From Ferroacidibacillus organovorans (GTDB lineage Bacteria; Bacillota; Bacilli; Alicyclobacillales; SLC66), in contig NZ_LSUQ01000022.1 in NCBI RefSeq assembly GCF_001642725.1, positions 1 through 41,736 of the forward strand: a stretch of DNA of 41,736 nt, written 5' to 3'. This document shows positions 1,818-28,340 of the stretch, one piece after another. Under the pieces are notes generated by a model. That model was given only the letters and a program-made list of their open reading frames with translations, had not been told where the DNA came from and ran no database searches. Both the position numbers and the translations under genes were made by a program. Position 1 is the first letter of the stretch. Each line of letters opens with the position of its first letter.

Positions 1818-1868
1818 TTAATGGTTGCAAAACGTTGGGGATGTGAACACGGCGGGAGGGAGACGCGG

Positions 1869-3392
1869 ATGCGCTGTGCGATCTATGCGCGGGTTTCGAC
1901 CGATCGACAAGGCGAGTCTGTTGACCATCAGGTTTCGCTCCTGCGCGAGTTTGCCAAACGTCGGGGGCAGGACTGGGAGGTTTTGGAGCATCTCGTTTTT
2001 GAGGATGAGGGGGTTTCGGCGACAAAGGTTTCCATTTGGACGAGACCTGCAATGAAGCGACTGATGGAGGCGGCGGAGCGGTCGGAAGTGGATGTTGTCT
2101 TGTTTAAGGGCATCTCACGTCTGGCGCGCAATACGCAAGAGGCGCTCGACGTCCTTGACCGTTTGCGCGCGCGCGGCTTGCGCGTGCTCTCTTACGAGGA
2201 GAGCTACGATTCGGCGAAGGAGAATTCGAACTTCATGTTCACGATGCACGCGGCCATCGCTGAGTATGAGGCAGAGAAGATCGGTGTGCGCGTGCGGCTT
2301 GGCAATAAAGAGAAGGCGAAATCAGGTCGCTGGGTGGGAGGGACACCTCCTGACGGCTACTACGTTGGGCGGGATGGTCATCTGGTGCCTGATGATGCGC
2401 GCGCGGGACTCATCCGTTCGATCTTTGAGCGCTATGCGTTGGATGGGTCATCGTGCGCCGCAATCGCTCGGGAACTGAATGCGCGCGGCGAGACAACGTC
2501 GACCGGGAATGGCTTCTCACAGACAGCGGTTGCGAGAATTCTTGACAACGAGGTGTACGCTGGACACTTGGTTTACAATCGGCGAACGGATCGCACCGTT
2601 CGCGATTACGACAGTGAGGTGCCCGGCAAGAAGAAAGAGCGGCGAATGCCGAATGTGCGGACAGAGTGGGTAGTGGTACACTGCGCTCATCCACCGTTGG
2701 TAACGCCGGATCTTGTGCAAATGGCACAAATGCGCCGCGGCCGTGTGCGCAGCCAAGCGCCGCGCACAACGCATTTGCTGACAGGAGTCCTCTCTTGCGG
2801 GCGCTGCCGCGCACCCTTGATCGCGCAGGTCAAACGCACGGCAAAGCGGGTCTATCGCTATTATGTCTGCCGCACGTACCACCAAGCGGGGAGGCAGGCG
2901 TGCGCGCAAGGAAGTGTCCCTGCGGATGATCTTGAGTCCTATGTGCTGACGCGCTTGTCTGAGCGCTTGCGCGAGGTGAGCATCAACGTGCTTGCACCCG
3001 CTTTGCAAAGCGCGTGCGCGCAAGGGGAGGAGCAGGCGAAACGCGAACGCGAACGCATCAATCGGCAACTCACGCGTCTGACGGACGCTTGGATTGCGGC
3101 GCAAGTCGATGATGTCCTGGCAGGTCAGGCCGCGTCTATTCGGGGGCGCATCGCGCGCCTGACGGCAGAGCGTGACGCGCTTTACAAGCGCCTGACGCAG
3201 GCGGGGTTGCACAGACACAAACGTGCGCAGGAGATCTATGCGCGGCTTGTCGATCTGGCGCAGGATGAACCTGCGATGAAACGATACTGGGTGCAAATGC
3301 TGATCTCGTCGCTCGTCGTGCACGATCGTACCCTCCTGATCCAGTACACGTTTTCTTCATCTGACGACACCCCGATCGATGGGAACGTTTGA
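1869..3392 (+). CDS. Large serine recombinase LSR1
   Basis: YARVST catalytic motif, SRLARN, recombinase domain, CGRC...C zinc ribbon; GGGAGGG RBS before ATG 1869. Its 3' end overlaps the yhbH junction. Confidence 0.95.
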
Positions 3393-3733
3393 GAAATATA
3401 TGGCGCGAACGTTTTTCTTCTGGATGGTGCGCTTTTTGCGTACGCGCTATGAGAAGGTTGACATCCAATTTATCGCTCATCACACGGAAGCGCTCGTCGT
3501 CACAGAGGATGAATTTTTCACAAAGGGTGAGAGCGGAGGCACCATCTGTTCATCCGCGTATCAGACGGCACTCAATCTGATTGATGATCGCTATCCGCCG
3601 TCGCGCTACAACATCTACCCTGTGCACTTTTCTGACGGCGACAACCTCTCTTCTGACAACGAGCGGTGTGTGCGCCTCGTTGACGAACTGATGGGACGGT
3701 GCAACATTTTCGGATACGGTGAGGTCAATCAAT
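3376..3733 (+). CDS. yhbH: Sporulation protein YhbH (DUF444), internal segment of split gene
   Basis: [17 protein letters not shown]...GESGGT.CSS...HFSDGDN...YGEVNQ is typical of YhbH; homology stops at the core repeat. Confidence 0.92.
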
Positions 3734-3775
3734 TGAACGGCGTGCGCTCTCTCCACTCCTCATGGTTGAGATCCC

Positions 3776-5341
3776 CTAAAAGAGCAATTCGACATTGAGG
3801 CGTGGACATTCTCCGCCAGTGTCGTTCAGTGTGCGTGTATATTCAATTCTCCGCACGCTTTTGATCAACAACGCGCGCAGATCATCCCCCTTACACGAGA
3901 GGAAAAGGTGGGATGGCTCGCACCTCGCGCGCGCGTTAAGAGCTGATTTGGCGCGATTTGTTTTGTGGTTCGTTTCGTTTCGCTCTTGCTTTAGCGCCTC
4001 AAGGGATTCATTAGCCTGTCGCAGTTGCTCTGCCACTTCATCGTAGCGCGCTTGAAACTGCGTGCGCGTATACACTCCCTGTTCATACATCTCGCAGATT
4101 CGCTTCAATTGTTCTTCCCGTGCCTGGCGCGTCCGCGCAATGACGTGCGCGAGGGAATCAGAGACAGCAGTGAACTCTGTCTGTTCTGGGTTTGGCGTGA
4201 TCGCTACCCCGCGGAATTGATCCGAGAGCGCACGCTGCACAGCGTGCAGGACGAGTTCATAGCGAGCGCTGCGCGTCGGGCAACCTTTTGTGGCACAGCG
4301 CAGTGCATTGTGCGGACGATTTTTCACAGGTTGTCGAACCATGGCGCGCTTGCATGTTGCGCAAAAGATGAGGCCGGCGAGGGGATGGATCTTTTTTTTA
4401 TTGTTGGCTGAGGCACAGGTTGGCGGGCGCTTGGATTCGTTGTTGACACGCTCCCACGTCGCGCAATCTACGATGGGCTCGTGATTTTCTTCGCGAACGA
4501 TCCACGCATCTGGTTCCATCACAACGCGATGATAGCGGGCACGCTCCATCTCACGCACCTTGTGGCTGCGCACGCGTCCCCACACAAGCGCACCGCGATA
4601 GACTGGGTTCAAAAGGATAAAGCGCACGGTCGAAGGCGACCACAAAGCATTCCCCGATGGACTCGGCAACGCCATGGCGCGCAGGCGTTCCGCGATTGCC
4701 GATGGACCAAGGGAATTGCTTGCGAGCGCGTAGATCCACTTCACGACTGGCGCGGTCTGCGGATCGGGGATTAGCTTCAGTTCGTCTGTGCGCAGATAGC
4801 CGTAGGGAGGTCGCTTGCTGATCGAGCGCCCCGCTTTTACACTCTGTTCGCGGCCGCGCTGCATGCGCCGCGTGATTAACTTCAATTCACGGCGAGCGAG
4901 AAAGGATTCGAATTCCGTCCACTCCTCATCCAACTCATCACGCAGGTCGTAGATCTTGCGCGGCGTCACGATGCGCGTGCCGGAGCGCTTAAACGTCTCT
5001 TGAATCACACCCTGGTCGATCAGGTTTCCGCGTCCGAGACGGTCGAGATCCATACAGAGCACCAGGTCGTAGAGTCCATTGGATACATCGTGCAGCAACT
5101 GTTGCATCTGCGGGCGTTCGAGGATGTGCTCACCTGAGGCGATTTCTTGATACGCGCGTCTAATCTCCACGTCGTGTTGACCGGCGAGTTCGCACAGCGC
5201 GCGATGATGTTTGGCGAGCGTTTCGCCGTCTCCGCGCGCTTCGGCTTCGAGATCAGCGCGCGATTTACGCAGATAGAGCGCGGCGCGTAAACGCGGTGAA
5301 TGGACTTGTGATTCATGCACAGTCGTTTCTTTTATCGTCAC
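3776..5341 (-). CDS. Large serine recombinase LSR2
   Basis: YLRKSR catalytic motif, DLDRLGR, PPYGY, CATC...C zinc ribbon; AAGGAGG RBS before GTG; ends ~40 bp from the left core. Confidence 0.95.
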
Positions 5342-5361
5342 ATGAAGCCCTCCTTAGTGCA

Positions 5362-5389
5362 TTGCGCTTTCTATCCATTAGAGTATAAT
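5362..5389 (+). promoter_or_regulatory. Putative sigmaA promoter of the APC transporter
   Basis: TTGCGC-16 bp-TATAAT. Confidence 0.5.
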
Positions 5390-5450
5390 GAGTCACATTG
5401 AACTCGCAGAAGATCCGTCGATGTAAGAAATGATGGAGGCCTCTTATAAC

Positions 5451-7370
5451 ATGGCGTTGTTTCGTCCATGGCTCGATTCGGCAGTGATTACCCTTTCTGT
5501 CGTAGCCATTCTCTATGCATTCTTAAATTTTAATACATTCAAACGAGTGCTCGTCGGATCGCCCATGCGCACCCGCGAGCTACATTCAAAACATAATCGA
5601 CTCTTTTGGCTGATTGCACTACCGATTCTCGCTGCGGATCTTTACTCTTCAGTCGCGTACGGCCCGGAGGCCGGCATTGCGGAACTGACCGTCAATGCGC
5701 ACCTCGGCGTTGACGCCAAGTGGCTGATTCTCCCTGTCACCGGGGCTACCGTCTTGCTATTGATCATTCTTGTCACCTCGTACATCATGGGAGTCATCGC
5801 GTATCCGAACGGCGGTGGCGCGTATGCAATCTCCAAGGACAACTTCAAACGCCCGATCATCTCGCTCATCGCGGCCAGTTCCCTCTTGATCGATTATGTC
5901 CTGACGGTCGCCGTCTCGGTTACGGCAGGGATTCAGGCGATGGCGTCCGCCTATCCGGCGCTTGTTCCGCATGAAACGATCCTTTCGGTCGCATGCATTC
6001 TGCTAATCCTCGTGGTGAATCTGCGTGGTATCTCAGAGTCGGCGACGATTTTTGCGTGGCCGACGTTCCTTTTTATGTTCGCCATGATTTTCTTGATCGG
6101 AACCGGCTTTGTGCAAGAGTTTCATCACGGCTTTGTTCAGCCCGTGACACCGCCGTTTGGTACGCTTCCTAAAGCGCTCACCTCGCTGCTTTTATTAAAG
6201 TCATTCAGCGCGGCGTGTTCCTCACTGACCGGGATTGAGACGATCTCAAACGCGGTTCCGATTTTTCGCGAGCCGAAAACCAAAGGTGCAATCAAAGCGT
6301 ACATCGCGCTCGGCGTGATAACAGGGGTGACACTTCTTGGGTTCTCTTATCACCTTTATGTGAACGGGATCAACGTCATGCCAAACACGACGATGGAGTC
6401 ACAACTCCTGTCGCTCTACTTCGGCTTTGGCCCGATCTATCAAATTATCATCTGGCTGACGTTTATCGTGCTCATCCTCGCGGCAAACTCGACATTCACC
6501 GGATTTCCGCAATTGGCTGCGCTCGTCGCGGCAGACAGCTTTCTCCCGCGCGCCCTCATGCTGCGCGGAGATCGTCTCGGATACTCCAATGGGATGATCG
6601 TGTTGGCTGCGTTTTCCACCATCCTCGTTGTCGTTTTCAATGCACAGACCGATAATTTGATTCCTCTATACTCGATCGGCGTTTTCGTCGCCTTCTCTGT
6701 GGCACAGATTGGACTCGTGCGCTACTGGCTGCGCGAAAAGAAGGGTCGTTGGAAAACAAAACTGACGATCAACCTGATTGGCTCAATCGTAACCATGCTG
6801 GTGTCTGTCGTTGTCTCCGTGACAAAGTTTACGAGCGGTGCGTGGATCATCTTCATTGTTCTCCCGATTCTCCTGTTTATCGCGCTCGCTGTGCGCCGCC
6901 ACTATACGCAGATCGCGAACGAATTGCGGATTGACATGTCATGCATTCGCCCGGAATCACACCGTGTGATCACGGTCGTGCTGGTGTCTGGCGTCAATCG
7001 CGTCGTGCTTAACGCCCTTTCTTTTGCAAAGAGCATCAACAACGAAGTGATCGCGCTCTATATCGGCTTTGACGATGAATCGATCGAGCGCATCGAAAAG
7101 AAGTGGAATGAATGGGAGTGTCCCTGCCGATTGATCACCGTCAAAAGTGAGTATCGCTCGATTCTCTATCCACTGTCTCGCTTTATTGGGCGGCTGCAGT
7201 CGATGGAAGACGGGAAACCGGATCACGTTCATGTGATGATCGCCCAGTTTGTGCCTAAGAAGTGGTGGCACAACATTCTGCATAACCAGACGTCACTCGT
7301 GATCCGTGCTTGGCTTTTACGGCACCGGGATGTCGTGGTAACGACGATTCCCTATCATTTACACGATTAA
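5451..7370 (+). CDS. APC-family permease, KimA/YdaO-like K+ transporter
   Basis: KRVLVGSP...D.YSSVAYGPE, YPNGGGAY, LLIDYVLTVAVS and C-terminal HNQT...PYHL; about 12 TM segments. Confidence 0.88.
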   Translation: MALFRPWLDSAVITLSVVAILYAFLNFNTFKRVLVGSPMRTRELHSKHNRLFWLIALPILAADLYSSVAYGPEAGIAELTVNAHLGVDAKWLILPVTGATVLLLIILVTSYIMGVIAYPNGGGAYAISKDNFKRPIISLIAASSLLIDYVLTVAVSVTAGIQAMASAYPALVPHETILSVACILLILVVNLRGISESATIFAWPTFLFMFAMIFLIGTGFVQEFHHGFVQPVTPPFGTLPKALTSLLLLKSFSAACSSLTGIETISNAVPIFREPKTKGAIKAYIALGVITGVTLLGFSYHLYVNGINVMPNTTMESQLLSLYFGFGPIYQIIIWLTFIVLILAANSTFTGFPQLAALVAADSFLPRALMLRGDRLGYSNGMIVLAAFSTILVVVFNAQTDNLIPLYSIGVFVAFSVAQIGLVRYWLREKKGRWKTKLTINLIGSIVTMLVSVVVSVTKFTSGAWIIFIVLPILLFIALAVRRHYTQIANELRIDMSCIRPESHRVITVVLVSGVNRVVLNALSFAKSINNEVIALYIGFDDESIERIEKKWNEWECPCRLITVKSEYRSILYPLSRFIGRLQSMEDGKPDHVHVMIAQFVPKKWWHNILHNQTSLVIRAWLLRHRDVVVTTIPYHLHD

Positions 7371-7375
7371 AACAG

Positions 7376-7450
7376 GATAGACGGTAGCATGGCGCTCTCT
7401 CGCCACCGTTTACGGGAAAATAATCGGCTGCGCCGTTATTTTGAGATAGA
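7376..7450 (+). repeat. ~75-bp two-hairpin repeat, copy 1
   Basis: Near-identical to 28265-28340; begins and ends with GATAGA. Confidence 0.85.
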
Positions 7451-7473
7451 GACAAGCGAGCCTCCCATATCGT
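7446..7473 (+). promoter_or_regulatory. Putative sigmaE-type promoter for ORF 7497
   Basis: ATA (7446-7448), 17 bp, then CATATCGT (7466-7473). Confidence 0.4.
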
Positions 7474-7496
7474 TAAGAAGATAGGGAGGTGTTTTT

Positions 7497-7697
7497 ATGC
7501 CGTCTACGACGTACTACCTTGATCACGCGATCGTAACCATTCACGTTCGCTGCGAATGGAACGCAAAATCGTTTGATGGAGTGGTGGAGACTCCAATCTA
7601 TCGCACGTTTTGCGAAGCGGTGCGGCGTGTTGCCAGCAATGGACAGGCAGAGAGCCGGGATGGGTCAATCAATACAACCGCAGCTCCACGCTCATGA
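7497..7697 (+). CDS. Small protein crossing the right att site; candidate directionality factor of element 2
   Basis: Strong AGGGAGGT RBS; ORF reads through the core; on the excised circle it would stop right after the core (59 aa). Confidence 0.6.
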   Translation: MPSTTYYLDHAIVTIHVRCEWNAKSFDGVVETPIYRTFCEAVRRVASNGQAESRDGSINTTAAPRS

Positions 7698-7816
7698 GCG
7701 CGTACCGTAACATTCGCTCGCCTCGCTTTCGCTGTGCGGTCATCAAGGATAAAGCGGAGGTTTACAAAGCGCTACGCACCTTCTTTTCCACTGCAGAAGG
7801 AGGGATCGTACCGTGA
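7663..7816 (+). CDS. yhbH: YhbH C-terminal segment
   Basis: [17 protein letters not shown]...VYKALRTFF matches the YhbH C-terminus; its stop overlaps the spoVR start (GTGA). Confidence 0.9.
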
Positions 7817-7991
7817 CACCAGATGAGATTCGCGAACTTGAGTCGTCGATTGAACGCATGATGGAGCTGGCGCAAGGGTTTGGACTTGACTTCTATGACA
7901 TGCGATTTGAACTGGTACCCGCCGACGTGTTATACACGTTCGGCGCGTACCAAGGCATGCCGACCCGCTTTTCACACTGGTCGTTTGGTAA
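7813..7991 (+). CDS. spoVR: SpoVR segment 1 (N-terminus)
   Basis: GFGLDFY.MRFE...[28 protein letters not shown]. Confidence 0.93.
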
Positions 7992-8018
7992 GACAAAGCA
8001 CCATGTGTATGAAAAAAA

Positions 8019-9437
8019 TTAGACATTCCAGTTGATCTCAAGATCTTGATTGGGACGAAGAAGGATCGTTTTGATGGCGGCCCGTAAAACTGCTTGGCGA
8101 GCGTCAAAATCCAGATCGTCCCAGCTCTGATCGATCAGACGCATAAGATTGAACAGGTCCTCTTTACGTGCGGGCTCGGGCGCTGCCTCCTCCAACGTAT
8201 CACGTTGTAACCATAACGCGCGTTTCTCGGCTTCTAATGCATCGATTCGTTCTTTCAGATGAGATGGCTGAATGAACCCTTCCTCAAAAGCGTCGTACCA
8301 TCGGTTTAATCGATGATCAATCTGGGTTAATTTTTCTTCAATCGCGGATAACACCACGCATGATTGGCGTTGTTCTTCAGTAGAGAGCTCAATTTCTGTG
8401 CGCAGGTCTTCCATGTCAATGGCGGTTGATCTCACCTTAGCGATGATCCAAGCTTCGAGTTTTTCTTGAGGGAAATAGCCTAATTGGCAGTGTTCTTGCC
8501 CTTTTCGATCTCTTTTGCGCACATGTTGATTCTTACAGGCGTAGTATTCGTAGGTATGTGTTTGTCTCTTTGTGCGAACGCGAATGACAGAGCTCCCGCA
8601 TAAGCCGCAACGACACAAACCGGAAAGCAAGTATGCGCCTGTCGATGTCAGACCGTTGCGGCGACGAGCCGTTTCATTTTGAACCATTGTGTATAGATCC
8701 AGAGGGATGATTGCCTCATGCTGACCCTCCACAGGCTCCGAAGGGCCGTTGGGTAACCTCCCGGTATAGATGACCCGGTCGAGGATGGATTTAATTCCGT
8801 TGTGATCGACCTTGATATCAGTACTGCGTGCATTGAGCCAATCAGCCAGTTCGAGTCGCGATTTACCTTGGAGATACATCTGGTTTATTTTACGAATGAG
8901 TTCTGCTTTTTCAGGAACGATCACCAACGTTTGATTCTGTTTATCCCAACGGTAACCAAAAGCGACCCTGCCTCCACTCCATCGACCCTGGCGAATCCTC
9001 ATTCGTCGTCCTGACGTTGTTCGCTCAATGATCATGTCACGCTCCAACTGTGCGAATACCGCAAGGATTCCAATGGTTGCCTTGCCCAAAGGTGTCGCGG
9101 TGTCAAAGGGCTCTGTTGAACTTTTGAAAGCGACATTGTTTTTTTCAAAGACATCCTCGAGGAGATGCAACACATCCTTTTGTCTTCGACTAAGACGGTC
9201 GAGTTTATAAACGACGACAAGATCAATTTTTCCTTCTAGGGTGTGCTTGATAAGTCTGGTCATTGCAGGACGATCAAGCTTCGTGCCCGTATAACCGTCA
9301 TCAATATAAAATCGGTAGTCTTCCCAACCCTGTGAGGCACAGTAGGCAATAAGTCGATCTCGTTGGTGATCGATTGAAAATCCCTGCATCGCTTGTTCTT
9401 CCGTGGAAACGCGGATATAGAGGGCAATCTTAGTCAT
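8019..9437 (-). CDS. Large serine recombinase LSR3
   Basis: [24 protein letters not shown]...C; likely start ATG 9437 with GGGG RBS; ends 27 bp from the left core. Confidence 0.95.
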
Positions 9438-9617
9438 AGCACACCCCATTGACTTTATTGATGTGACTTGATGCCAATGAATGATTGCTTCACCGTTATG
9501 ATATTTACGTTGTTTTGCAAAATGCGGCTCCACAACTCATATTTAAAAACAATCAAGAGGATATACGTATTCAGTTGGAGGTTTATAACCACAAATAACG
9601 ATTCGATAAGCTGGCAA

Positions 9618-9643
9618 ACGGACGTGCCGCTTGAGCATAGCCT
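9618..9643 (+). promoter_or_regulatory. Putative sigmaK-type promoter for the 46-aa ORF
   Basis: AC (9618-9619), 16 bp, then CATAGCCT (9636-9643). Confidence 0.4.
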
Positions 9644-9661
9644 TAATTAGGGGGTGTGCTT

Positions 9662-9802
9662 GTGGAGGAAAAACCGATCAAATTAAATCCGGATGCGGCA
9701 CGGTTGATTTTACGCCTGTGTGTTGAGGCCATACGTAGAGCGAACGCGAAACGGGGAAGAGAACGGGTAGAGGGCGTACAAAATCTTCAAGAGGGCGCTT
9801 AG
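9662..9802 (+). CDS. 46-aa ORF divergent from LSR3 (not in ORF track); candidate directionality factor
   Basis: GTG...TAG encodes MEEKPIKLNPDAARLILRLCVEAIRRANAKRGRERVEGVQNLQEGA; GGGGG RBS 7 nt upstream. Confidence 0.55.
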   Translation: MEEKPIKLNPDAARLILRLCVEAIRRANAKRGRERVEGVQNLQEGA

Positions 9803-9870
9803 CCTTCTTATGTAGGACAGGCCACAGTGAGTATGTATGCACGAGTAAACACCCGATATACGCACTGCAA

Positions 9871-10092
9871 ATCTTCAGCTAAGTGTAACAAAGCATTTCG
9901 AATCCGTTGCCTTGCGTGTGGAGTTAGTTTGTCTATAAATTTTTGTGCGTCTTTGCTCAGGAGTAGATTGTATATTCAGTTTTCCACGAAGATCTCATCA
10001 AAGGGAACGAAGTCGCCATTTCTCATCTCTTGCCGAATCCGTTTATATTCTGCAATCTCTGCGTCTGTCACGGGTTCATCATCCTCGTTCAT
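9871..10092 (-). pseudogene. Remnant RelBE/ParDE-type toxin-antitoxin pair
   Basis: 10092-9976 gives MNEDDEPVTDAEIAEYKRIRQEMRNGDFVPFDEIF (antitoxin C-terminus-like). 9975-9871 gives YNLLLSKDAQKFIDKLTPHARQRIRNALLHLAED (RelE N-terminus-like, truncated, no ATG). Confidence 0.65.
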
Positions 10093-11039
10093 GAATCACT
10101 TGCTTTCTTTGTACGGGAGGCAATTTTCATGATTTCGTTGGCAACAACAACCTCTGTTCCTGCTAAGCCCACAGAGCAGAATAGAGTAATATCGGTTTCT
10201 GTCATTCTTCCGGATGCTTTTCCACATACGATTTCGGACAGTTGCACAATGCGATTTTCACATTTCGTATCCACCAAGAAATGGGGTGTTTTATAAGCGT
10301 GAAGCTGTTCGATCGAGTCCGTCGCGATGATCGTACTCTTAATGCCCAAATCGAGGGGTACCTCATGCCAATTTTTAGTTTTTGGGCCAACCGTATTGAT
10401 GTGTGTTCCTGGTTTGAGCCAGTCGGATTCGAATACAGGAGTGCCACTGTTGGTCGCACAGATGACGATATCGGCATCTTCGATGCAATCTCTTGGGGAA
10501 GTGGCAACTGCGATATTCGCATGGATCTTCTTGCGCATTCCCTCTGCAAATGCTTCTCGGTTTTCTTGCTTGCGGCTATAAACCTTAATACTTTTAATGT
10601 TTCGTACAGCCACGGCTGCCTCCAATTGTGTCCGCGCTTGTAGTCCCGTACCCATCACGGCGATTTTTTTTGCATCGACTCGAGCCATGGCGTTTATTGC
10701 TGCGCCACCGATTGCGCCAGTACGAATGGCACCGATGAGATTGCCGATGACCACTCCCTTAAAAACACCCGTATCCGAGTCAAAGACGCACACGAGCTGT
10801 TGATGACCCTCTGCATCATTTTCGTACGTATCGTAGACACGAAATCCAGTAACCTTTTCGAGTCCAGTTGCGGCTCCTGCCGTAAAAACCAAGTTGCCCT
10901 GTTCCGCTTCCACACGGAAACGTGGCGGTGATACAAGGGTTCCGTTTATTTGCTCCTGAAAGCAACGTTCGATGGCGTTCACGATCCGCTTCATGGAGGC
11001 AAACGATTCAACATCGTGATCCGTAAGAATGGAGTACAT
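10089..11039 (-). CDS. Ornithine cyclodeaminase/mu-crystallin family protein
   Basis: IRTGA.G, GTGLQA, ADIVICAT, HINTVG, F.SVGLA motifs. Confidence 0.9.
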   Translation of the reverse strand: MYSILTDHDVESFASMKRIVNAIERCFQEQINGTLVSPPRFRVEAEQGNLVFTAGAATGLEKVTGFRVYDTYENDAEGHQQLVCVFDSDTGVFKGVVIGNLIGAIRTGAIGGAAINAMARVDAKKIAVMGTGLQARTQLEAAVAVRNIKSIKVYSRKQENREAFAEGMRKKIHANIAVATSPRDCIEDADIVICATNSGTPVFESDWLKPGTHINTVGPKTKNWHEVPLDLGIKSTIIATDSIEQLHAYKTPHFLVDTKCENRIVQLSEIVCGKASGRMTETDITLFCSVGLAGTEVVVANEIMKIASRTKKASDS

Positions 11040-11244
11040 GCAATACACCCCTTCACTGTTCCAATCTGTTACAGTGCGTTTTGTGACGTAAAGGATCTCA
11101 GCGAGTGCCAGGGAACGTCCATCTTCAATTATTTAAAACAAATCGATGCGAATGACAGCATCAAAGGATTCCATTGACCCATGAATAGGACGGTTTAATT
11201 TATTGTGTCTACGTGCTATTGCATAAATCCTCAAGGGATATTAA

Positions 11245-12261
11245 CTAACCATACACCTCTGCCATCCAATTGGCGTAATCGGACACCGCTTGGATCAATT
11301 TTTCCAGCTCTTGCAAAGTATGTATGACTTCTCTGCGCCCCAACTCTCTGTCATCCATGTTGAATAGATCTCTGTTTAAGGAGCGACGCATGTTGTATTC
11401 GAGCCATCCTAACATACCTCCGAAACTGCCGTACACAGCATCTAATACTTCATTGTGCAACGTTCCGCCAGCTTCGAGATAAGCCTGAATCACTCCCTGG
11501 AAACGTTCCTTACTCACGGTCCCGTCGTGACTTCTGCTCCAATTAAATGCCACCTCGACTAATTCTACAGTTGGATGTATATAACCTGCCGATTCCCAAT
11601 CGATCAGATATGGAATGCCTTCGTGATTCCAAATAACATTTTTAGAATCTAAATCCCGATGACTAATGACAAATTTCTGGGGAAGATTGTCTACTGCATC
11701 CTGATACTTTCGAGACCAGTTGGTCACATCTTGCAAGATACTTTCACAAGAAAGACCCCAACACGATGCGTCCCGTCGAGCATTCTCGATGTGATACCTC
11801 TACGTATCGAAGGAAATTGCCGAGAAAGTTGGTAACGCCGAACCATCAATGACAATATCGAGGTTGTGTATCTGGAACAAAATCTCTCCGATGTGCTTAA
11901 CGTGCTCAGACGTACAATTTTCGGGAAGCAACGTGATACCATCGACCCAGTCAAACACCATCACATATTCACCATGCAATTCAATCCATGGTTGACGATC
12001 TACAGTTCTTGCAGAAACCGCACGAATGCCCTTTATATTAGCCTGATGTGCGACTCTTTCTGACATTCTATAATTGGTCTTTGCATCAGGACGAGACATT
12101 ATCTATGAATTCAGTACTTTTATTGCAAATCGTCCGTGGTCTGTCTCTAAACACCACATTCGATGGAGTAATCCGCCTGTGACGGGTTGTGGAGTTCCTT
12201 GGGGAATTCCAATTTCAAAACCATCGCATATCGCATTCAAATCGACACTCAAGCGAGTCAT
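11245..12261 (-). pseudogene. Aminoglycoside-phosphotransferase-like kinase with two in-frame TAG stops
   Basis: Three ORF pieces share one frame, separated only by TAG at 12103-12105 and 11800-11802. Motifs GGLLHRMW, HRDLDSKN, IDWE. Confidence 0.82.
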
Positions 12262-12292
12262 TTGATTTCCCCTCATCAGTAGAATAAGCCCT

Positions 12293-12721
12293 TTAGCAGA
12301 GTGACAAGCGGCAGTGAAACCGCTCAACTCCGGGATATTTCTCACCAAGGGACCGTATTTCAAATCCATATCTACGATAAAATTCAACCGCATCATGATC
12401 TGTTTCGGCAGTTAATTCCGTGAGATTCTCAAGCATAAGGAGGTTATCTATCATTCTTCGACCAATTCCGCAGTTACGCTTGTGTTCATCGACGGCAATG
12501 TGAAGAATTTCAGCAGAAAATCCTTCTCTCTTGAAACCAATGATGCCTAGCGCTGCGTCGTCATTATCGATGAATACATATAGTTTCGTATCACTTTGCG
12601 AGTACACTTGCACCAAAATATTGCTGAGCTTTTCATCCGTGGCGGAGCCGACCGCGTATGACAACCATTGTTTTATCTGCTCGATGGATGTGATATGGCT
12701 TCTGTACTCAACCAGCGTCAC
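12293..12721 (-). CDS. GNAT acetyltransferase
   Basis: HIAVD...RNCGIGR and AVEFYRRYGF motifs; GGGAGGG RBS before GTG 12721. Confidence 0.88.
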   Translation of the reverse strand: MTLVEYRSHITSIEQIKQWLSYAVGSATDEKLSNILVQVYSQSDTKLYVFIDNDDAALGIIGFKREGFSAEILHIAVDEHKRNCGIGRRMIDNLLMLENLTELTAETDHDAVEFYRRYGFEIRSLGEKYPGVERFHCRLSLC

Positions 12722-12786
12722 AAGCGACCCTCCCTTCCTCAGCAACCAAGCTTCGTTTGTCTCCCGTGAATCAAATCCAAACGATG

Positions 12787-13725
12787 TTATTTAGCGAGTT
12801 CTACAGCCAACAGCGCACCTACGTGCGCATTGTTCTTTACCAGTGCCACATTTGTCTCCAGGCTTTTACCATCGGTCAGTTCTTTAATTTTATCGAGAAG
12901 AAAAGGGGTTACGTCCTTGCCCCTGATGTGTTTCCGATGCGCTTCGTCCAGCGCTTCTGTAATGACTTTTTCAATTTCTTTTGCATCCATTGCGAATTCC
13001 TCGGGGACAGGATTCGCAATGACAGCCCCGCCATGGAGTCCGAGTTTCCACTTCGTGTGTAGGAATGAAGCTAATGCCTCCGGGCTGTCGAGCGAAAAGT
13101 TTGTCTGGAATCCACTTGTGCGACTGTAGAATGCAGGGAACTCGGTGGTCTGGTAGCCAATGACTGGGACGCCGTATGTCTCCAGGTATTCGAGTGTAAG
13201 TTCAATATCGAGGATCGATTTTGCGCCAGCACAGACAACGGCCACGTTGGTCTGCGCAAGCTCGTTCAAGTCCGCAGAGATGTCCATCGTTTGTTCGGCG
13301 CCGCGATGTACACCGCCAATACCACCCGTGACAAATACGCGGATACCCGCAAGCTGAGCGCAAATCATCGTTGCAGCAACCGTGGTCGCGCCACTCTGTC
13401 CTTGTGCGAGAACAAATGCCAAATCACGGCGACTGACCTTTGTGATACTGTCTCGATTTTCAGGGCATCCGAGCCATTCAAGGTTCTCATCGGAAAGTCC
13501 GATATGGATTTTTCCGTTCAAAATTGCAATCGTCGCCGGGACCGCGCCATGGTATCGAATAATGGCTTCGACTTCCTTTGCCGTTTGTACATTGGTTGGA
13601 TAAGGCATGCCATGTGAAATAATGGTCGACTCAAGCGCGACAATTGGCTTCTCAGTTCTCTTTGCCTCCATTACTTCATCCGAAAAATGCAACCATTGGT
13701 TTAACGACGGGTTCATATCTTCCAT
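12787..13725 (-). CDS. psuG: Pseudouridine-5'-phosphate glycosidase
   Basis: [47 protein letters not shown]. Confidence 0.95.
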
Positions 13726-13740
13726 CTCTCCTATGATGTT

Positions 13741-14850
13741 CTACAGAATTTCTGACAACCAGGCTTGAGCCTCGCGTGGGTCGATTTCTGTAGATACGGT
13801 TTCTTTTGTCACCAACGTTAGGCTGGACAAGCGAGCGGCAAATTGACATGCCTGTTTGACACTCGCATCGCTGACCATCGCAAAGCAGAAGCCAGCCACG
13901 AATGCGTCACCTGCACCAGTCACATCGACGACGTCGATGCTCTCTGCCGGTATTTTGCCAAAGGTGCCTGCCTCATCCAACCAAGCCACACCATCCCTGC
14001 CCATAGTTGCGACAACGGTCCGACACCCCCTATCTTTCAGTGCGACACATGCGGCGCGAACGCTATCCTCTTTATCGACAGGGATACCTGAAATTGCCTC
14101 CATTTCATCTCGATTGGCGATCAGCGTATGAATCCCGGTAAGGTCTCTTGGCAAGCGCTTGGCTTTGGGACTTGATACCGGAGCAACAATCAGTAAAGTG
14201 CCAGCCCTTGCCGACTCGGTAATGACAAAGGCAAGCGCTTCTGCCGGCAAGTTCGTGTCGACGATCGCAATCGTAGCTTGTTGCAGCACCCGCGATCTCG
14301 GTGTCAACTGCTCGACGGTTAAGTCGTCGTAAATTTCCATATCGGCGAGCGCAACAGTCATACTCCCGTCGACGTCGAGCACCGCAGTGTATGTTCCTGT
14401 GCGGTGTGCAGTCGATCGGATGATCTGGCTGACATCTGTACCAAGGCCCTCAAGGTGCGCGAGTATCATTTCGGCTTCTTTGTCGTTGCCGACCATGGTG
14501 ACAAGCGACGTGGGTAATCCGAGGCGTGTCATATTTTCGGCAATATTTCTTGCAACGCCACCAAATGACTCTACAACAAAAGAGGGGTTCGACGTGCCTA
14601 GCTGGATTGGTTCATACGCTTGAATTTTTCGATCTACATTCGCACCGCCGATGCACAAAATACGCCCTCGCTGTGGCAAAACGTAGGCCCGACCGAGAAT
14701 CTCCCCCTCTTTGATGAGCGCAGAGATATAAGCTGCTACCGCAGGTCTGGATGCATTCATTCGTTCAGCCAAATCTCGTTGGGAGATAAACGGGTTTTCA
14801 CGGATACAATGTAGAACTTCCTGTTTCTTGCTCCGACCCGACTCAGCCAC
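13741..14850 (-). CDS. psuK: HTH-PfkB kinase, pseudouridine kinase-like
   Basis: N-terminal HTH (NPFISQRDLAERM), GGVARNIA and DVTGAGDAF motifs; adjacent to psuG. Confidence 0.85.
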   Translation of the reverse strand: MAESGRSKKQEVLHCIRENPFISQRDLAERMNASRPAVAAYISALIKEGEILGRAYVLPQRGRILCIGGANVDRKIQAYEPIQLGTSNPSFVVESFGGVARNIAENMTRLGLPTSLVTMVGNDKEAEMILAHLEGLGTDVSQIIRSTAHRTGTYTAVLDVDGSMTVALADMEIYDDLTVEQLTPRSRVLQQATIAIVDTNLPAEALAFVITESARAGTLLIVAPVSSPKAKRLPRDLTGIHTLIANRDEMEAISGIPVDKEDSVRAACVALKDRGCRTVVATMGRDGVAWLDEAGTFGKIPAESIDVVDVTGAGDAFVAGFCFAMVSDASVKQACQFAARLSSLTLVTKETVSTEIDPREAQAWLSEIL

Positions 14851-14862
14851 ATCGTCACTCCT

Positions 14863-14909
14863 TATAACACATGTTATATTAGGTTAAACAATTGTTTGTT
14901 AGCAGTCAA
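14863..14909 (-). promoter_or_regulatory. psuKG promoter with two AACA-NN-TGTT palindromes
   Basis: Minus-strand TTGACT-17-TAACCT; palindromes at 14866-14875 and 14887-14896. Confidence 0.55.
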
Positions 14910-14973
14910 TCTACGATAGAAATTGCCGCATCGGTGATTTTACATCAATCTGAAATTTTCATATACCTGGTGT

Positions 14974-15620
14974 TTTGGTAAAGCGTACCACCGTATGAAG
15001 ATGGACTATGATTTGGGATTGAGCCGCATCTATGAACTGGTGATTAATTCGAATCCGTGCTACGCATTTCTGCTCGACAGCAATTCTCTCGTGCAAAATA
15101 AATTGGTGAGCGCCCACGTTCTCGCACACTGTGACTTTTTTAAAAACAACATGATGTTTCACCGCACCTCGCGAAATGTCGTTGAAAGTATGGCGGCGAG
15201 CGCGGAACGCTTTCGTACCTATGAGCTGCAATACGGAAAAGATGAGGTGGAAGCATTTCTGGATGCGGCGCTCGCGCTACAGGAACACATCGACCCATCA
15301 GAGCGCGCATTTCGTCATCCGCATACGAAACCGGATTTGCGCGAGGAGCAAGAGCAGTCACCTCGGGTCGGAAAATATGATGATTTATTTGCGCTGGATG
15401 GTCGTTTATCCGATCGTGCGAAGGTGGATGAAAAGAAGGCGGAAAATCGCAAAGCAAAGGGGTTCGCAAAAGACGCACCGCAAAAGGATTTGTTGCTATT
15501 TTTGCAATCGCACAGCAAGATTCTCGCGGAGTGGCAGCGCGACATGCTGACGGTGATTCGCGAGGAGATGCTCTACTTTTGGCCGCAGATTGAGACAAAA
15601 ATCATGAACGAAGGCTGGGC
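14974..15620 (+). CDS. spoVR: SpoVR segment 2 (middle)
   Basis: [38 protein letters not shown]...[16 protein letters not shown]. Confidence 0.95.
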
Positions 15621-16788: not shown

Positions 16789-18309
16789 ATGCGTGAAAAT
16801 GCAGCGAAAAAGATTGCGATTTACTGTCGCGTATCCACGGATGAGCAGGCAAAAGAAGGCGTGTCGCTCGATGAGCAAAAGGCGAGGCTTCACGCGTACT
16901 GTCGCGCGATGGGTTGGGCGACAGAAGCTGTAGAGTATATTGATGACGGCTATTCGGCGAAAAATATGGAGCGTCCGGCGCTTGAACGCTTGTTGCGACA
17001 TGTGAAGGCAGGGCGCGTTGAGCGGCTCATGGTGACAAAACTCGATCGATTGAGTCGGCGTTTGCTTGATTTGTTGACGCTGATCGAACTGTTTCAAAAC
17101 CACGACGTTTCATTCGTATCGACAAGCGAATCCTTTGATACAGCGACGCCTTCCGGTCGCTTGACACTGCAGGTGCTCGGAGCTGTCGCGGAGTTTGAGC
17201 GTGAGCGCATACGTGAGCGCGTTTTTGACAACATGCTGCATGCAGCAAAAATGGGGAAATGGTTGACACAAGCTCCATACGGCTATCGGCTCGACGCGAA
17301 AAAGTTGGTTATTTGTGAAATGGAGGCGCTTCTTGTTCAGCGCGTCTTTCGCATGTTTGTCGAAGATGGTTTGGGATACTTTCAAATTGCAAAGAAATTG
17401 AATCAGGAACACATCCCTTCTCGCAATGGGAAGGCGTGGTCGATTCGGAGTGTCAAAATCATGCTGAGTAATCCTGCCTATGCGGGAACGCTTGTGTGGA
17501 ATCGCGTTGATTCGAGTCAAAAGCGTCGAGTGCTTAAAGAAGAAGACGCGTGGGTCGAGATGCGCGACGCTCACCCAGCGATTGTTGAACAGGCGCTGTG
17601 GCATCAGGCGCAGCAGCGCATCGCGAGCCATCCGCGAATGCCGCCGCGCGCGCAAGCCAGCCCTCATCTGCTGGGTGGCTATTTGCGTTGTGGAGAATGC
17701 GGCGCGGCGATGTCGATCGGTTGGTCTGGAAATCCGCGGCGAACGCGCGTCTATCGCTGTTCTGCGTATCGAAATCAGGGGCTTTGTCAGAGTAAGCCGT
17801 ATCGTGCAGACGATGTGGAGCGGTGGTTTGTGGAGGCGCTTGAATGCGTGGTGGAGCCTGTGAATCATGCGCGGCACACCGCTTTGGTTCAGCGTGTGCG
17901 GGCGGAGCAGATCGCCAAATTGGATCAGAGGATGCACGCCGCGAAAATGCGCTATGACAGACAGGTAGAAGCGTATACGGCGGGACTCATCGAGATGGAT
18001 ACCCTTGCGCGTGAAAAGGTGGCGCTGAAGCGATGTGTCGCAGAGTACGCAAAGGAGATGTCGACGACGGATTCATCTTCACATGATAAGGAGCTGGAGG
18101 AACGCCTGCGCGGACGGGCGGTTACGCTCGGCGATGCGCTAACCGTGCTTCCGGCTGACTGGATCAAAGCGAAACTGCGCACATGGATTCACAGCGTCAT
18201 TCTTCACGGACGTGAGGATCTTGAGATTGTGTTGTGTCCTGATCTGACGATGGTTTCTGATGCAATGGATCAATCCATTGGAGGATTTTTAGAGTATGGT
18301 GTCGAATGA
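16789..18309 (+). CDS. Large serine recombinase LSR4
   Basis: YCRVST, KLDRLSR, VAEFER, APYGY, CGEC...C. Confidence 0.95.
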   Translation: MRENAAKKIAIYCRVSTDEQAKEGVSLDEQKARLHAYCRAMGWATEAVEYIDDGYSAKNMERPALERLLRHVKAGRVERLMVTKLDRLSRRLLDLLTLIELFQNHDVSFVSTSESFDTATPSGRLTLQVLGAVAEFERERIRERVFDNMLHAAKMGKWLTQAPYGYRLDAKKLVICEMEALLVQRVFRMFVEDGLGYFQIAKKLNQEHIPSRNGKAWSIRSVKIMLSNPAYAGTLVWNRVDSSQKRRVLKEEDAWVEMRDAHPAIVEQALWHQAQQRIASHPRMPPRAQASPHLLGGYLRCGECGAAMSIGWSGNPRRTRVYRCSAYRNQGLCQSKPYRADDVERWFVEALECVVEPVNHARHTALVQRVRAEQIAKLDQRMHAAKMRYDRQVEAYTAGLIEMDTLAREKVALKRCVAEYAKEMSTTDSSSHDKELEERLRGRAVTLGDALTVLPADWIKAKLRTWIHSVILHGREDLEIVLCPDLTMVSDAMDQSIGGFLEYGVE

Positions 18310-18353
18310 ATAAGATTATTGTAGGTTGACGGTTTTTTGTGAGGGATCTAGGG

Positions 18354-19265
18354 ATGGCCAATTCGGTAATTAAAAATTACTCGGACGACATTCGAACTGA
18401 GATTTATCGAGTGACGAATGAGCTACTGGAGCACCTGCACCTGTATTATCAGCCATTTCCTGAATTTGATGCTGTCCGATTTCCGGCAACGGCGCTGACG
18501 ACCGCGACGGAAGGCTTTTTTTTACCGATGATGCTACTAAAAAAGATGGTTGTTATTCCTGTGTGGATTTTTACGATTGATGACGTGATTGATCGTAAAT
18601 TGTTGTCGGATGAAGAATTGGATGCTCGACTGAAAAGTTATGAATGGATCATCACGCAGGGGCTGGATGCGTCTGACGTGTATGGTCGCGTGTTGAAGGA
18701 TCTTTATGACCAGCTAAAAGAGAGGCCGCTTTTTCACGCGTTGCGAGAAGTGTGGGAAGAAGCCTATTTTCGAATGATCCGTGGGATGCTTCTTGAAGCG
18801 CGTGAAACCGTTCGAGTCCCATCGTATGATGAATATCTCGAACACGGATCGTACAGCATTGGCGTTCCGCTCTATGTCGTTTCGACGTGGATTCTCGGTT
18901 CTTATGAAGAAACATTAACGCATCTAGAAGTCCTAAAAAAGCTGATGATGCTGTCGGCGAAAAGCATTCGGCTTGCCAACGACATGCGTACATACGAAAA
19001 AGAGAAAATGGAAAAGAACCTAAACGCGCTTGTGATCATGGAGAATACGTACGAGTCAGAAGGCTACGCGCCTGACGCGGCGAAAGCGTTGGCGTCTGCA
19101 TTTGTACGGGAAGAGTTGGAGCGCTATCGCACGCAGTTTCTTGAATTGGTTGATGAATCGGTACTGCCAATCAGAACGCTGTCAAACGTTACTCAGTTTT
19201 CGCTGTCGTTTTATGATGAGCATGATTTTCATACCGTTGATGCGGGGGAGATCCACCATGTTTGA
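18354..19265 (+). CDS. Class I terpene synthase
   Basis: DDVID (DDxxD) and NDMRTYEKE (NSE/DTE) motifs, YDEYL; start could be GTG 18339. Confidence 0.85.
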   Translation: MANSVIKNYSDDIRTEIYRVTNELLEHLHLYYQPFPEFDAVRFPATALTTATEGFFLPMMLLKKMVVIPVWIFTIDDVIDRKLLSDEELDARLKSYEWIITQGLDASDVYGRVLKDLYDQLKERPLFHALREVWEEAYFRMIRGMLLEARETVRVPSYDEYLEHGSYSIGVPLYVVSTWILGSYEETLTHLEVLKKLMMLSAKSIRLANDMRTYEKEKMEKNLNALVIMENTYESEGYAPDAAKALASAFVREELERYRTQFLELVDESVLPIRTLSNVTQFSLSFYDEHDFHTVDAGEIHHV

Positions 19266-20763
19266 AAACGCGGGTGAAGACGATGCTTCAAAAACGGATG
19301 TGAAGCGCAGAGCGCGTGACTTGGTCGAGCGATTGCAGGGCGGCGCGATGGGATCGATCGCTTATGACACTTCGTGGGTGGCGCGCTTAAAAAATCGGGA
19401 TGGTTCTCCGAAATTCCCGACTACGATCGCCTGGCTGCGCGCGCATCAACACGCGGACGGAAGTTTTGGCGCGCGCGATGAAACGTTGCATGACCGGCTG
19501 ATTTCTACGCTCGCGAGCGTTAATGCACTGACGACGTTGCACGATGAAACGGATAGCGAGCGCATCTCTCGCGCACTTGACTATGTGGCGCGAAACGGTG
19601 GTCGTCTGCGCGCGGATGACGCTGAAACGATTGGTTTTGAGTTGCTTTTTCCTTCGCTACTCGAAGAGGCAAAAGGCTATGGATATCGACTGCCTTTTGA
19701 ATCCTTCGGATGGGTTGAAGAACTGGGGAAAAGAAAGTTGAGCGCAGTTCCCGCGTCGTGGATCTACGAAGCGGAGTCTCCACTTATCCACAGCATCGAG
19801 TTTCTCGGAAAAACAGCACAGATTGATCGCATGGCGCAACTCGTTTCGGTCAACGGATCGATCGGAAACTCTCCATCCGCCTCGGCATTTGTCTATGGGC
19901 AAACGGACGACCCCCGACTGGAGGCGTATTTGCGTCAGATTGTAGAGACGTCTGAGGATGGCGGTGTCTGCAATGTTCAACCGTTTGAAATTTTCGAAAC
20001 GGCGTGGGTGTACTTCAATCTACAGTTGGCTGGAATCACGGTTGAGGGAATGCAAAAAGGATTGCATGAGATTGAGCTGTCATTCAGGCCGCAGGGTGTC
20101 GGGATTTCCCGCAATGGCCTAATGCCAGACGCGGATGACAGTGCACTCGCCGTCAATGTGCTAGCTCGCGCTGGACGCCGAATGTCACTCCAGTTTTTGG
20201 ATTTTTATCAAGCGGAACGCGGATTTTTATGTTTTCCGTATGAGCGCAACCCTTCGATTTCAACCAATATCCACATCCTTGACGCGCTGCGTGCGTATGA
20301 GCCGCAAGAAGTGGCGCCTCATGTGGATAAGATTCTCACGTTTTTGCGCGAGGCTCAACAGGAAAATGCGTATTGGAAAGATAAATGGCATGCCTCTCCA
20401 TTCTATACAACAGCGCATGCGATTCTGGCGCTGCGAGGATTGACTGAGTCACTGATAAAAACGGCGGTCGATTATTTAATTGAATCGCAACGGCCTGATG
20501 GTTCGTGGGGGATTTTTAGGGGTACGGCGGAAGAAACGGCGTATTGTGTACAGGCGTTGACGCTTGCGCTTCCTTATTCTGCGGATGTGGACAAGCGGCT
20601 TGCACGTGCACTTTCTTTTTTAAGTAGCGAGGGGGCAAAAAAACCTCACTCTGAACTCTGGATTGGGAAGGGGCTCTATGCGCCAACCTATGTGATTGAC
20701 GCTACGATTCTAAGCGCGCGCGCGCTCTACCAGAGATGGAGGTACTCTCATGAAAAAGGATGA
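19258..20763 (+). CDS. Class II diterpene cyclase (copalyl/halimadienyl diphosphate synthase-like)
   Basis: YDTSWVA, QHADGSFG and QRPDGSWG (QW repeats), catalytic DADD, DKWHASPFY, EETAY, LWIGKGLY; GGGGGAG RBS before ATG 19258. Confidence 0.92.
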   Translation: MFENAGEDDASKTDVKRRARDLVERLQGGAMGSIAYDTSWVARLKNRDGSPKFPTTIAWLRAHQHADGSFGARDETLHDRLISTLASVNALTTLHDETDSERISRALDYVARNGGRLRADDAETIGFELLFPSLLEEAKGYGYRLPFESFGWVEELGKRKLSAVPASWIYEAESPLIHSIEFLGKTAQIDRMAQLVSVNGSIGNSPSASAFVYGQTDDPRLEAYLRQIVETSEDGGVCNVQPFEIFETAWVYFNLQLAGITVEGMQKGLHEIELSFRPQGVGISRNGLMPDADDSALAVNVLARAGRRMSLQFLDFYQAERGFLCFPYERNPSISTNIHILDALRAYEPQEVAPHVDKILTFLREAQQENAYWKDKWHASPFYTTAHAILALRGLTESLIKTAVDYLIESQRPDGSWGIFRGTAEETAYCVQALTLALPYSADVDKRLARALSFLSSEGAKKPHSELWIGKGLYAPTYVIDATILSARALYQRWRYSHEKG

Positions 20764-23068: not shown

Positions 23069-23071
23069 AGG

Positions 23072-24184
23072 ATGCGAGGATGGCATAATTTGAAACGTAA
23101 AATGGCCAGAGTACAAATGAGCGAAGATGCAATCATGAAAGAGTTGGACTCCTACATGAAATCTGTGATTGAAAGGGGTTTGGACGGGAAAATTCGCAAT
23201 GTGATTGAGTACCATCTCGGGTGGCGTGACATTGATTTTTCTGAACTGGAGTTTGGGAATATCGGCAAGCGCGGCAGACCAATGATGTGTATTTTGACGA
23301 GTATGCTCTTTGCGTATGATTATAAACGTTCTTTTTCAGTGGCTGCGGCAATCGAGTTTATCCATAGTTTTTCGCTGATTTACGATGACATCCAAGATCG
23401 GGACACCATTCGCCGGGGACGTCCCTCCGTTTGGAGTTTATGGGGGGAGGATGAGGCGATTAATGTGGGGTGTGTGCTGCAAACGATGGTTTATGAGGTG
23501 ATTGCAGATCCTGAGAATGAGAATAAACCTGCGCAACTCTCGTGGTTGATTCAATCTGTCAATCGCACGATGTGGAGAGTATGCAATGGACAACAACTCG
23601 ATTTAGAGCTCACCAAAAGTAGGCATCATGTAACGCAGACTCAGTATTTAGAAGTCATCACCGGAAAAACGGCGGCCTTATTTGAGGCGGCAGCTTATCT
23701 CGGCGCGTTTTGTTCAAACGCTAATGAGCGGGAATTGGCACTTTGTCGCTTGTTTGGAGAGAATGTTGGCCTTGCTTTTCAAATTTTTGATGATGTCGTT
23801 GGAATTTGGGGTAGTCGAGAACAAGGACTGGACAAGCCCAACCTCGATCTAGAGCATCGAAAAAAAACGTATCCGATCATCCATGCGCACGAGAATTGTC
23901 AAACGGACGCCGATCGGCTGATCCTCCATCGCTACTATGAGAAGGAAGAACTCAGTGAGCGCGATTTGATCAACATCACGGAACTGCTGAACCGCTGTGA
24001 TTCGCGATCGAAGAGCCTTGAAATCGGATATCAGTATCTCAAAATTGCAATGCAAGCACTTGATGACATAGCAGGGAATGAAGCGATCAAGACGCGTATT
24101 CGCATTTGGGTTAATTACGTTATCGACAAACAGCTTTCTACATTACAAGGTTACATTAAACTTGATGACGAGCTTGTAAAATAA
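23072..24184 (+). CDS. Polyprenyl synthase, likely GGPP synthase
   Basis: GKRGRP, FSLIYDDIQD..RRGRP (aromatic residue at -5 of FARM), GQQLD, KTAALF, FQIFDD; exact start uncertain. Confidence 0.9.
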   Translation: MRGWHNLKRKMARVQMSEDAIMKELDSYMKSVIERGLDGKIRNVIEYHLGWRDIDFSELEFGNIGKRGRPMMCILTSMLFAYDYKRSFSVAAAIEFIHSFSLIYDDIQDRDTIRRGRPSVWSLWGEDEAINVGCVLQTMVYEVIADPENENKPAQLSWLIQSVNRTMWRVCNGQQLDLELTKSRHHVTQTQYLEVITGKTAALFEAAAYLGAFCSNANERELALCRLFGENVGLAFQIFDDVVGIWGSREQGLDKPNLDLEHRKKTYPIIHAHENCQTDADRLILHRYYEKEELSERDLINITELLNRCDSRSKSLEIGYQYLKIAMQALDDIAGNEAIKTRIRIWVNYVIDKQLSTLQGYIKLDDELVK

Positions 24185-28264: not shown

Positions 28265-28340
28265 GATAGACGGTAACATGGCGCTCCCGCGCCACCGTCT
28301 ACGGGAAAAATAAATCGCTGCGCCGTTATTTCGAGATAGA
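28265..28340 (+). repeat. ~76-bp two-hairpin repeat, copy 2
   Basis: Near-identical to 7376-7450. Confidence 0.85.

Follow-up and report, generated by a model that had tools for sequence, protein, structure and literature searches.

A large serine recombinase element splits yhbH at a CA core in Ferroacidibacillus organovorans and is predicted to be excised during sporulation

The 41,736-nucleotide contig NZ_LSUQ01000022.1 of Ferroacidibacillus organovorans (assembly GCF_001642725.1), analysed over its whole length and called the window below, carries four large serine recombinase (LSR) genes (1821-3392, 3776-5341, 8019-9533 and 16789-18309), the second of which, LSR2, lies in a 3,940-bp element (element 2) that splits the sporulation gene yhbH. 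Element 2 is read here as a gene-intervening element of the skin/SPbeta type that is excised in sporulation, and a probability of about 0.8 is assigned to this reading, the sporulation timing included. The attL and attR sites with a common CA core, the intact LSR2, the inner arm and the T-n3-C motifs are read directly from the sequence; element 2 has all the sequence-level features of an LSR gene-intervening element, whereas its excision and the function of its candidate recombination directionality factor (RDF) are predicted. That yhbH is the insertion site and CA its core is close to certain.

Element 2 is bounded by an 11-bp direct repeat that cannot be extended on either side (Table 1). 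The 11-mer is not rare by itself, with five further copies in the genome, and matters because copies sit at both break points of yhbH. Removal in silico of one repeat copy and the interior leaves a yhbH frame that is open to the stop at 7814-7816 and encodes a C-terminus resembling that of intact relatives; a sporulation gene is split, and precise excision restores its frame. The middle piece of yhbH, between elements 1 and 2, ends in a Gln codon of which CA is the first two bases, and it matches TIGR02877 (sporulation protein YhbH) better than any other NCBIfam model (E 1e-62); the score falls under the whole-protein cut-off because the piece is a fragment. The 5' piece lies on contig C91, and the 3' piece overlaps the spoVR start codon at 7813. 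The only two long open reading frames (ORFs) inside element 2 encode the integrase and a transporter; virion, replication and conjugation genes were not found among the long ORFs scanned, which sets the element apart from a prophage or an integrative and conjugative element (ICE). The transporter, 96% identical in the congener, also matches K_trans (E 3e-5, under the cut-off) and is presumably a KimA/YdaO-like potassium importer, a label that we assume. No riboswitch or other Rfam match was found in the window at gathering scores.

Joining the ends of element 2 reconstitutes an attP in which, as an earlier note on this DNA had claimed, inner 5-bp and outer 7-bp arms (7649-7655 and 3746-3752) are symmetric about the same CA (3730-3731 / 7670-7671); all of these coordinates proved correct on recheck, and 13 of 21 pairs match, the outer arms corresponding to half-site positions 15-21. 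The 15 other two-base-gap centres (offsets -10 to +5) give at most 9 of 21 symmetric pairs, and the second CA of the repeat (offset -4) gives 7. Across the genome a fraction of 5.8e-4 of 3,030,117 centres scores at least 13 of 21, which for the ten dinucleotides that the repeat contains amounts to about 0.006, an estimate of chance that is generous because the arm length of 21 was adopted from the claim itself. The attB of element 2 has no such dyad (7 of 21 pairs about CA). Because the two sites are identical over 11 bp, any crossover within them gives identical products, so that sequencing of wild-type products cannot place the crossover and the position of CA rests on symmetry and on comparison with relatives.

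Among 18 genomes of the same family, 12 carry an LSR2-like gene at this yhbH codon, four have an intact gene and two could not be scored; the LSR2-like proteins are 42-49% identical to LSR2 within the family and 76% in the congener. The site is interrupted in 6 of the 40 genomes examined, out of 45, in the sister family and by an integrase in 9 of 20 regions picked across the class, with 10 intact and one diverging without an integrase; these 20 regions were chosen for odd frame lengths, and 9 of 20 is not a prevalence. Both junctions were available for 20 elements (12, the window included, plus 1, 5 and 2), whose junction repeats are 2 to 14 bp long and reach to the left or the right of CA according to the likeness of the attP arm to B or B'. 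The attP arms themselves often share only 12-35 of 50 positions between genera. Offsets -2, 0, 1 and 3 alone are identical at both junctions in 18 of 18 elements, with which two later elements agree, and CA is the sole adjacent pair common to both junctions in all 20; at locus L176 the junction identity consists of CA and nothing else. The attP dyad is highest at CA in 18 of the 20 elements, namely 11 of 12 in the first set and 7 of 8 elements examined after the prediction was fixed, and the summed dyad score is 262 at CA against at most 149 at 25 other offsets. No peak appears in the summed attB dyad (107 at CA against 115 elsewhere). As is typical of LSR sites, attL and attR share a 2-bp core, around which attP forms an imperfect inverted repeat; the placing of the crossover at CA and the reconstruction of attP and attB at yhbH, both advanced in the earlier note, are borne out by these junctions. 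A crossover 5-7 nt downstream in the relatives was considered and rejected, as their repeats merely extend on the other side of the same CA.

The aligned half-sites indicate what the outer arms are. All 72 half-sites have T at position 2 (T2), and a T-n3-C motif is found at positions 19-23 of attP (T19 in 29 of 36 half-sites, C23 in 30 of 36, the six exceptions to C23 all belonging to genus g2) and at positions 14-18 of attB (T14 in 35 of 36, C18 in 36 of 36). Outer-motif identity between attP and attB is 0.544 at a shift of 5 bp and at most 0.385 at eight other shifts, which places the motif of the zinc domain about 5 bp nearer the core in attB than in attP. The outer 7-bp arm is part of this motif, which lies at about 3746-3754 in the P' arm of attL. 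The displacement agrees with that of the LI integrase, 5 bp, as compared to 4 bp for SPbeta (PMC11722253). Neither this shift nor the candidate RDF over attR described below figures in the earlier note.

The catalytic, recombinase and zinc-ribbon domains of LSR2 lie in an intact frame, the conserved catalytic motif is present in 15 of 15 aligned integrase rows, and the best solved relative is SprA of SPbeta (E 3e-37). That LSR2 is the cognate enzyme, as had been proposed, is supported by its position 46 bp from attL and by homologs at the same codon in relatives. A sigma-70 scan upstream of the integrase gave no match. The integrases of the first set form one clade (100/99), in which the groupings by genus agree with the host tree, no conflict being starred, and the deeper order is not settled. 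In a tree with Bacilli added, from which L168 and L060 were dropped for want of the anchor motif and in which Nm60, the published integrase discussed below, is not itself included, two supported subclades of 15 and 6 rows appear, and a single origin is not rejected (p-AU 0.63). Two of the family proteins come from Sulfoacidibacillus thermotolerans and Alicyclobacillus cycloheptanicus, names that point to the kin group. The integrase of genome G048 (L153:17304-18428) is short, with 393 residues from the catalytic motif and a stop 345 bp from attL, and is perhaps broken. In Alicyclobacillus fodiniaquatilis (L034:8738-11515), a homolog of LSR2 (42%) belongs to a mobile module that also contains two small regulators and an ORF weakly resembling an RDF; genes that we take to be cotJ-like lie alongside.

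In most relatives a 60-70-amino-acid ORF is divergent from the integrase, and 78 representatives of this small-ORF family were found; more weakly related ORFs lie upstream of related prophage integrases. The RDF verified for Nm60 (CHR53_RS06930) agrees by eye with the family consensus. The window has no family ORF at the usual place and has instead the ORF at 7497-7697, which runs over attR and is probably, to judge from profile ranking and promoter motif, the cognate RDF. It ranks first among 83 element ORFs against the family profile (E 0.019), aligns to the family by hhalign with P 0.003 and a probability of 10.7%, and has kept the hairpin, the Trp and Pro residues and the final helix of the family alignment. 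It was not among the top rows with the first profile, made from 8-11 relatives, and has no match in Pfam, NCBIfam, PDB or Atlas. Its product is 70% identical in the congener, where the differences by codon position number 8, 6 and 21 and are mostly at the third, and in genome G030 a family-like ORF (E 0.09) is likewise at the attR end. One member of the small-ORF family has a predicted fold with a pLDDT (predicted local distance difference test) of 92.5 and no PDB match at E 0.001; the family has no sequence or fold match to SprB.

A CATA-n3-T element is found 20-36 nt upstream of 11 of 16 RDF-family or candidate ORFs, those of the window and the congener included, compared to a shuffle mean of 1.4 (maximum 6) and to 140 of 1742 genes genome-wide (8%). 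It resembles what we take to be the -10 box of one or another mother-cell sigma factor. In the excised circle a stop within attP would cut the small ORF to 59 residues. P0002, a database protein with 88% identity to the small ORF, is 59 residues long and ends exactly at the circle-form stop, and its contig of 4,067 bp is the length of element 2 plus 127; the attP form would follow from either a circle or a branching of the assembly at that base, and this end point may be a hint of it.

LSRs act as dimers that cut with a 2-nt stagger at the core, rotate and religate, and recombination of attL with attR needs an RDF. In the proposed pathway, the small ORF over attR would be switched on from a mother-cell promoter during sporulation, LSR2 dimers would cut with a 2-nt stagger at CA, rotate and religate, and element 2 would loop out as a 3,940-bp circle, rejoining yhbH in frame in the mother cell, with the element kept in the spore chromosome. 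A full yhbH would also require the removal of element 1, and the downstream spoVR the removal of two more elements. The RDF-family ORF that adjoins the integrase in most relatives argues for this pathway.

Several observations weigh against it. No joint across element 2 was found in four of four runs (X1, X5, X6 and X7), although contigs drop rare forms, so that this is not evidence of absence. Mother-cell expression of yhbH is our assumption; in PMC517825 the gene figures only among SpoIIID-bound regions. LSR2 is on a long branch; the ORF at 7497-7697 ranks only tenth among 59,442 genome ORFs (E 13), so that its homology to the family is not significant genome-wide; and P0002 is only a hint of a circle, a metagenome scan aimed at its contig having given just L057, a locus unrelated to it. 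With regard to the comparison, 4 of the 20 junction pairs were joined across contigs by assumption, the 20 elements are mutually related and not independent, and in two elements CA does not have the highest dyad score, coming third in L037, the closest relative, and second in G058.

The best surviving alternative, which is nevertheless improbable, accepts the same sites and does not tie excision to sporulation: element 2 would be a small island with stress-induced or low constant excision, kept for its transporter. It is favoured by a 131.6-kb conjugation-type element at the same CA in genome G063, by cargo that differs between genera, and by the frequency of related integrases in prophages; it is opposed by the lack of transfer, replication or repressor genes in element 2, by the CATA-n3-T elements upstream of RDF-family ORFs, and by the agreement of integrase and host trees at the genus level without starred conflict. 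That element 2 is a frozen remnant that no longer excises, leaving yhbH dead in this lineage, is decidedly unlikely: the missing joint in all four runs, the long integrase branch and the divergence of the small ORF from its family would suit a remnant, but the pieces of yhbH are 94% identical to those of the congener and still in frame, the integrase is intact in both genomes, the attP arms retain the outer motif while middle positions drift, and 12 of 18 family relatives have the site occupied and the frame restorable. A cut at another dinucleotide of the 11-bp repeat, such as the CA four bases upstream, would give the same products in element 2, and offset -4 has the second-highest summed dyad score (149), but the two junctions agree at that offset in only 7 of 18 elements compared to 18 of 18 for offsets 0 and 1, and at L176 the junction identity is CA alone; the chance of this reading is very slight.

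Excision of an LSR element from a sporulation gene belongs to a known class, and the finding for element 2 is to that extent modest. The novelty of yhbH as an LSR target, implied in the earlier note, does not stand: Nm60 (WP_127485793.1), an integrase from Neobacillus mesonae, has a published attB (supplement of PMC10083194) that by eye is this same yhbH codon, with an attB/attP core containing the same CA, and yhbH is already described as a frequent integration target, with citation of Abe et al. 2013 (bioRxiv 10.1101/2021.11.22.469490). Nm60 recombines attB with attP and its RDF has been verified in vivo and in vitro (PMC12286644); it has been engineered further, and attP positions 13-23 are important to it (PMC13751307). 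Besides the attB codon and core, Nm60 by eye shares with most of the elements described here T19 and C23 on both attP arms, and its functional positions 13-23 cover the outer arm seen in element 2. It differs in attP sequence, cargo and position of the RDF gene, and the Bacilli integrases at this site that resemble it by eye are only 32-34% identical to LSR2 and group apart. The word "yhbH" has no match in the supplements of PMC10083194 (8 files) and PMC12286644 (1 file), and the link from Nm60 to a sporulation gene as its natural target, which the match of codons suggests, was not found stated in the literature searched.

The SprA/SprB system of SPbeta in spsM of Bacillus subtilis (PMC4191935, PMC11722253) is like element 2 in that SprA is the best solved relative of LSR2 and in that the integrase and the RDF, a candidate in element 2, are at opposite ends; in SPbeta the two genes meet at attP after excision (PMC6957869) and the RDF is timed by a mother-cell promoter. 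SPbeta differs in its target gene, in its zinc-domain shift of 4 bp rather than 5 bp, and in being an active prophage rather than a 3.9-kb remnant. The elements of Abe et al. 2013 (vfbin in spoVFB, a spoVR element, and yhbH as listed) and skin in sigK are likewise LSR elements that split a sporulation gene restored by excision, and spoVR is split in the window too; here, in contrast, a single operon of two genes is split by four elements. Published accounts of these elements from this order were not found in the open literature, subscription papers (Abe et al. 2013 among them) and bioRxiv supplements being outside the search and possibly naming the site. What appears to be new is the probable RDF, the occupancy of the site in 12 of 18 family genomes, and the 131-kb ICE-like element at the same CA. 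A well-defined att pair with a probable RDF is thereby provided for an integrase only about one-third identical to others at a site used in genome engineering, and the 20 natural att pairs are a resource for mapping specificity against one near-constant attB.

The element in G063, a complete genome (C1:852870-984429; L155, L162-L167), encodes TcpC, a VirB4-like AAA_10 ATPase, a Replic_Relax relaxase and DnaB_2 (35 of its 70 long ORFs were scanned); since these conjugation-type genes sit at the same CA, an ICE ancestry of the integrase elements at the yhbH site is plausible. A lytic transglycosylase, cobalamin genes and two GerA operons are also present in this element. Three integrases of genus g2 (approximately L042:16428-17660, L044:17553-18790 and L046:3935-5170) lack about 90 residues including the coiled coil, with 83 residues after the zinc ribbon compared to 156-180 in others; in the g2 elements A replaces C at attP position 23, and the small ORFs have no CATA motif upstream. 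A takeover of the CATA motif by the coiled-coil-less integrases has no support: the motif lies upstream of 2 of the 3, but also of 5 of 15 others, at scattered distances. These natural coiled-coil-less integrases would provide a direct test of current directionality models.

It is conceivable, though doubtful, that yhbH-spoVR is under a family-wide, vertically inherited recombination lock, which arose when an integrase/RDF unit of ICE origin was brought under a sporulation promoter and domesticated at the Nm60 site, and jointly that directionality control was rewired in some lineages: the RDF gene would have moved across attR in the genus of the window, such that excision clips its own C-terminus, and the integrase of another genus would have lost its whole coiled coil along with the RDF promoter motif, such that excision became independent of RDF. 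If so, four locks would have to open before the yhbH-spoVR operon of this genome is whole.

Table 1. Coordinates of element 2, its recombination sites and the adjoining pieces of yhbH in the window. The outer limits of attL were set from the usual 25-bp half-site.
Feature	Position	Strand	Basis or match
Middle yhbH piece, between elements 1 and 2	3379..3731	+	Pfam DUF444, E 2e-48
attL: B arm 3705-3729, CA core 3730-3731, P' arm 3732-3756	3705..3756	+	repeat and comparison
Left copy of 11-bp direct repeat	3723..3733	+	
LSR2, 521-aa (amino acid) large serine recombinase, frame intact	3776..5341	-	
Cargo transporter, 646 aa, APC superfamily	5430..7370	+	AA_permease_2, E 5e-26
Dispersed repeat of about 76 bp	7375..7450	none	5 more genome copies
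CATA-n3-T element, 31 nt upstream of small ORF	7466..7473	+	motif comparison
66-aa ORF through attR, probable RDF	7497..7697	+	profile ranking, promoter motif
attR: P arm 7645-7669, CA core 7670-7671, B' arm 7672-7696	7645..7696	+	repeat and comparison
Right copy of 11-bp direct repeat	7663..7673	+	
3' yhbH piece, 47 further codons and stop	7672..7816	+	open rejoined frame; matches intact relatives

The surroundings of element 2 are similarly interrupted. Four serine-recombinase elements, two per gene, split the yhbH-spoVR operon (window 1821-29073 plus contig C91), leaving each gene in three pieces, one of those of yhbH being on contig C91, and homologous elements recur at yhbH-spoVR sites in relatives. 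Junction repeats are 8 bp long in element 3 and 14 bp in element 4, and element 1 has no long repeat. The dispersed repeat of about 76 bp lies close to the right ends of elements 2 and 4 (in the latter at 28265-28340), its four further copies being on other contigs. Sequencing depth in run X6 is about 245 over elements 1-2, 209-280 over the spoVR pieces and 12-28 over element 3 (window 7977-15000), which suggests, contig depths being coarse, that the main strain in that run lacks element 3 or differs in it. By eye, the cargo of element 4 (window 18339-24184) presumably includes a terpene synthase/cyclase, a prenyltransferase and a GGDEF/HD-GYP protein; recurring cargo in L040, L042-L046, L048 and L049 we take, also by eye, to be a penicillin-binding protein, a FolC/Mur-type ligase and a major facilitator superfamily (MFS) transporter, and the cargo of L051 is presumably a germination-receptor-like operon. 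Proteins resembling YhbH are also encoded in 40 phage records (hits H16-H25), mostly of large Bacillus and Thermus phages.

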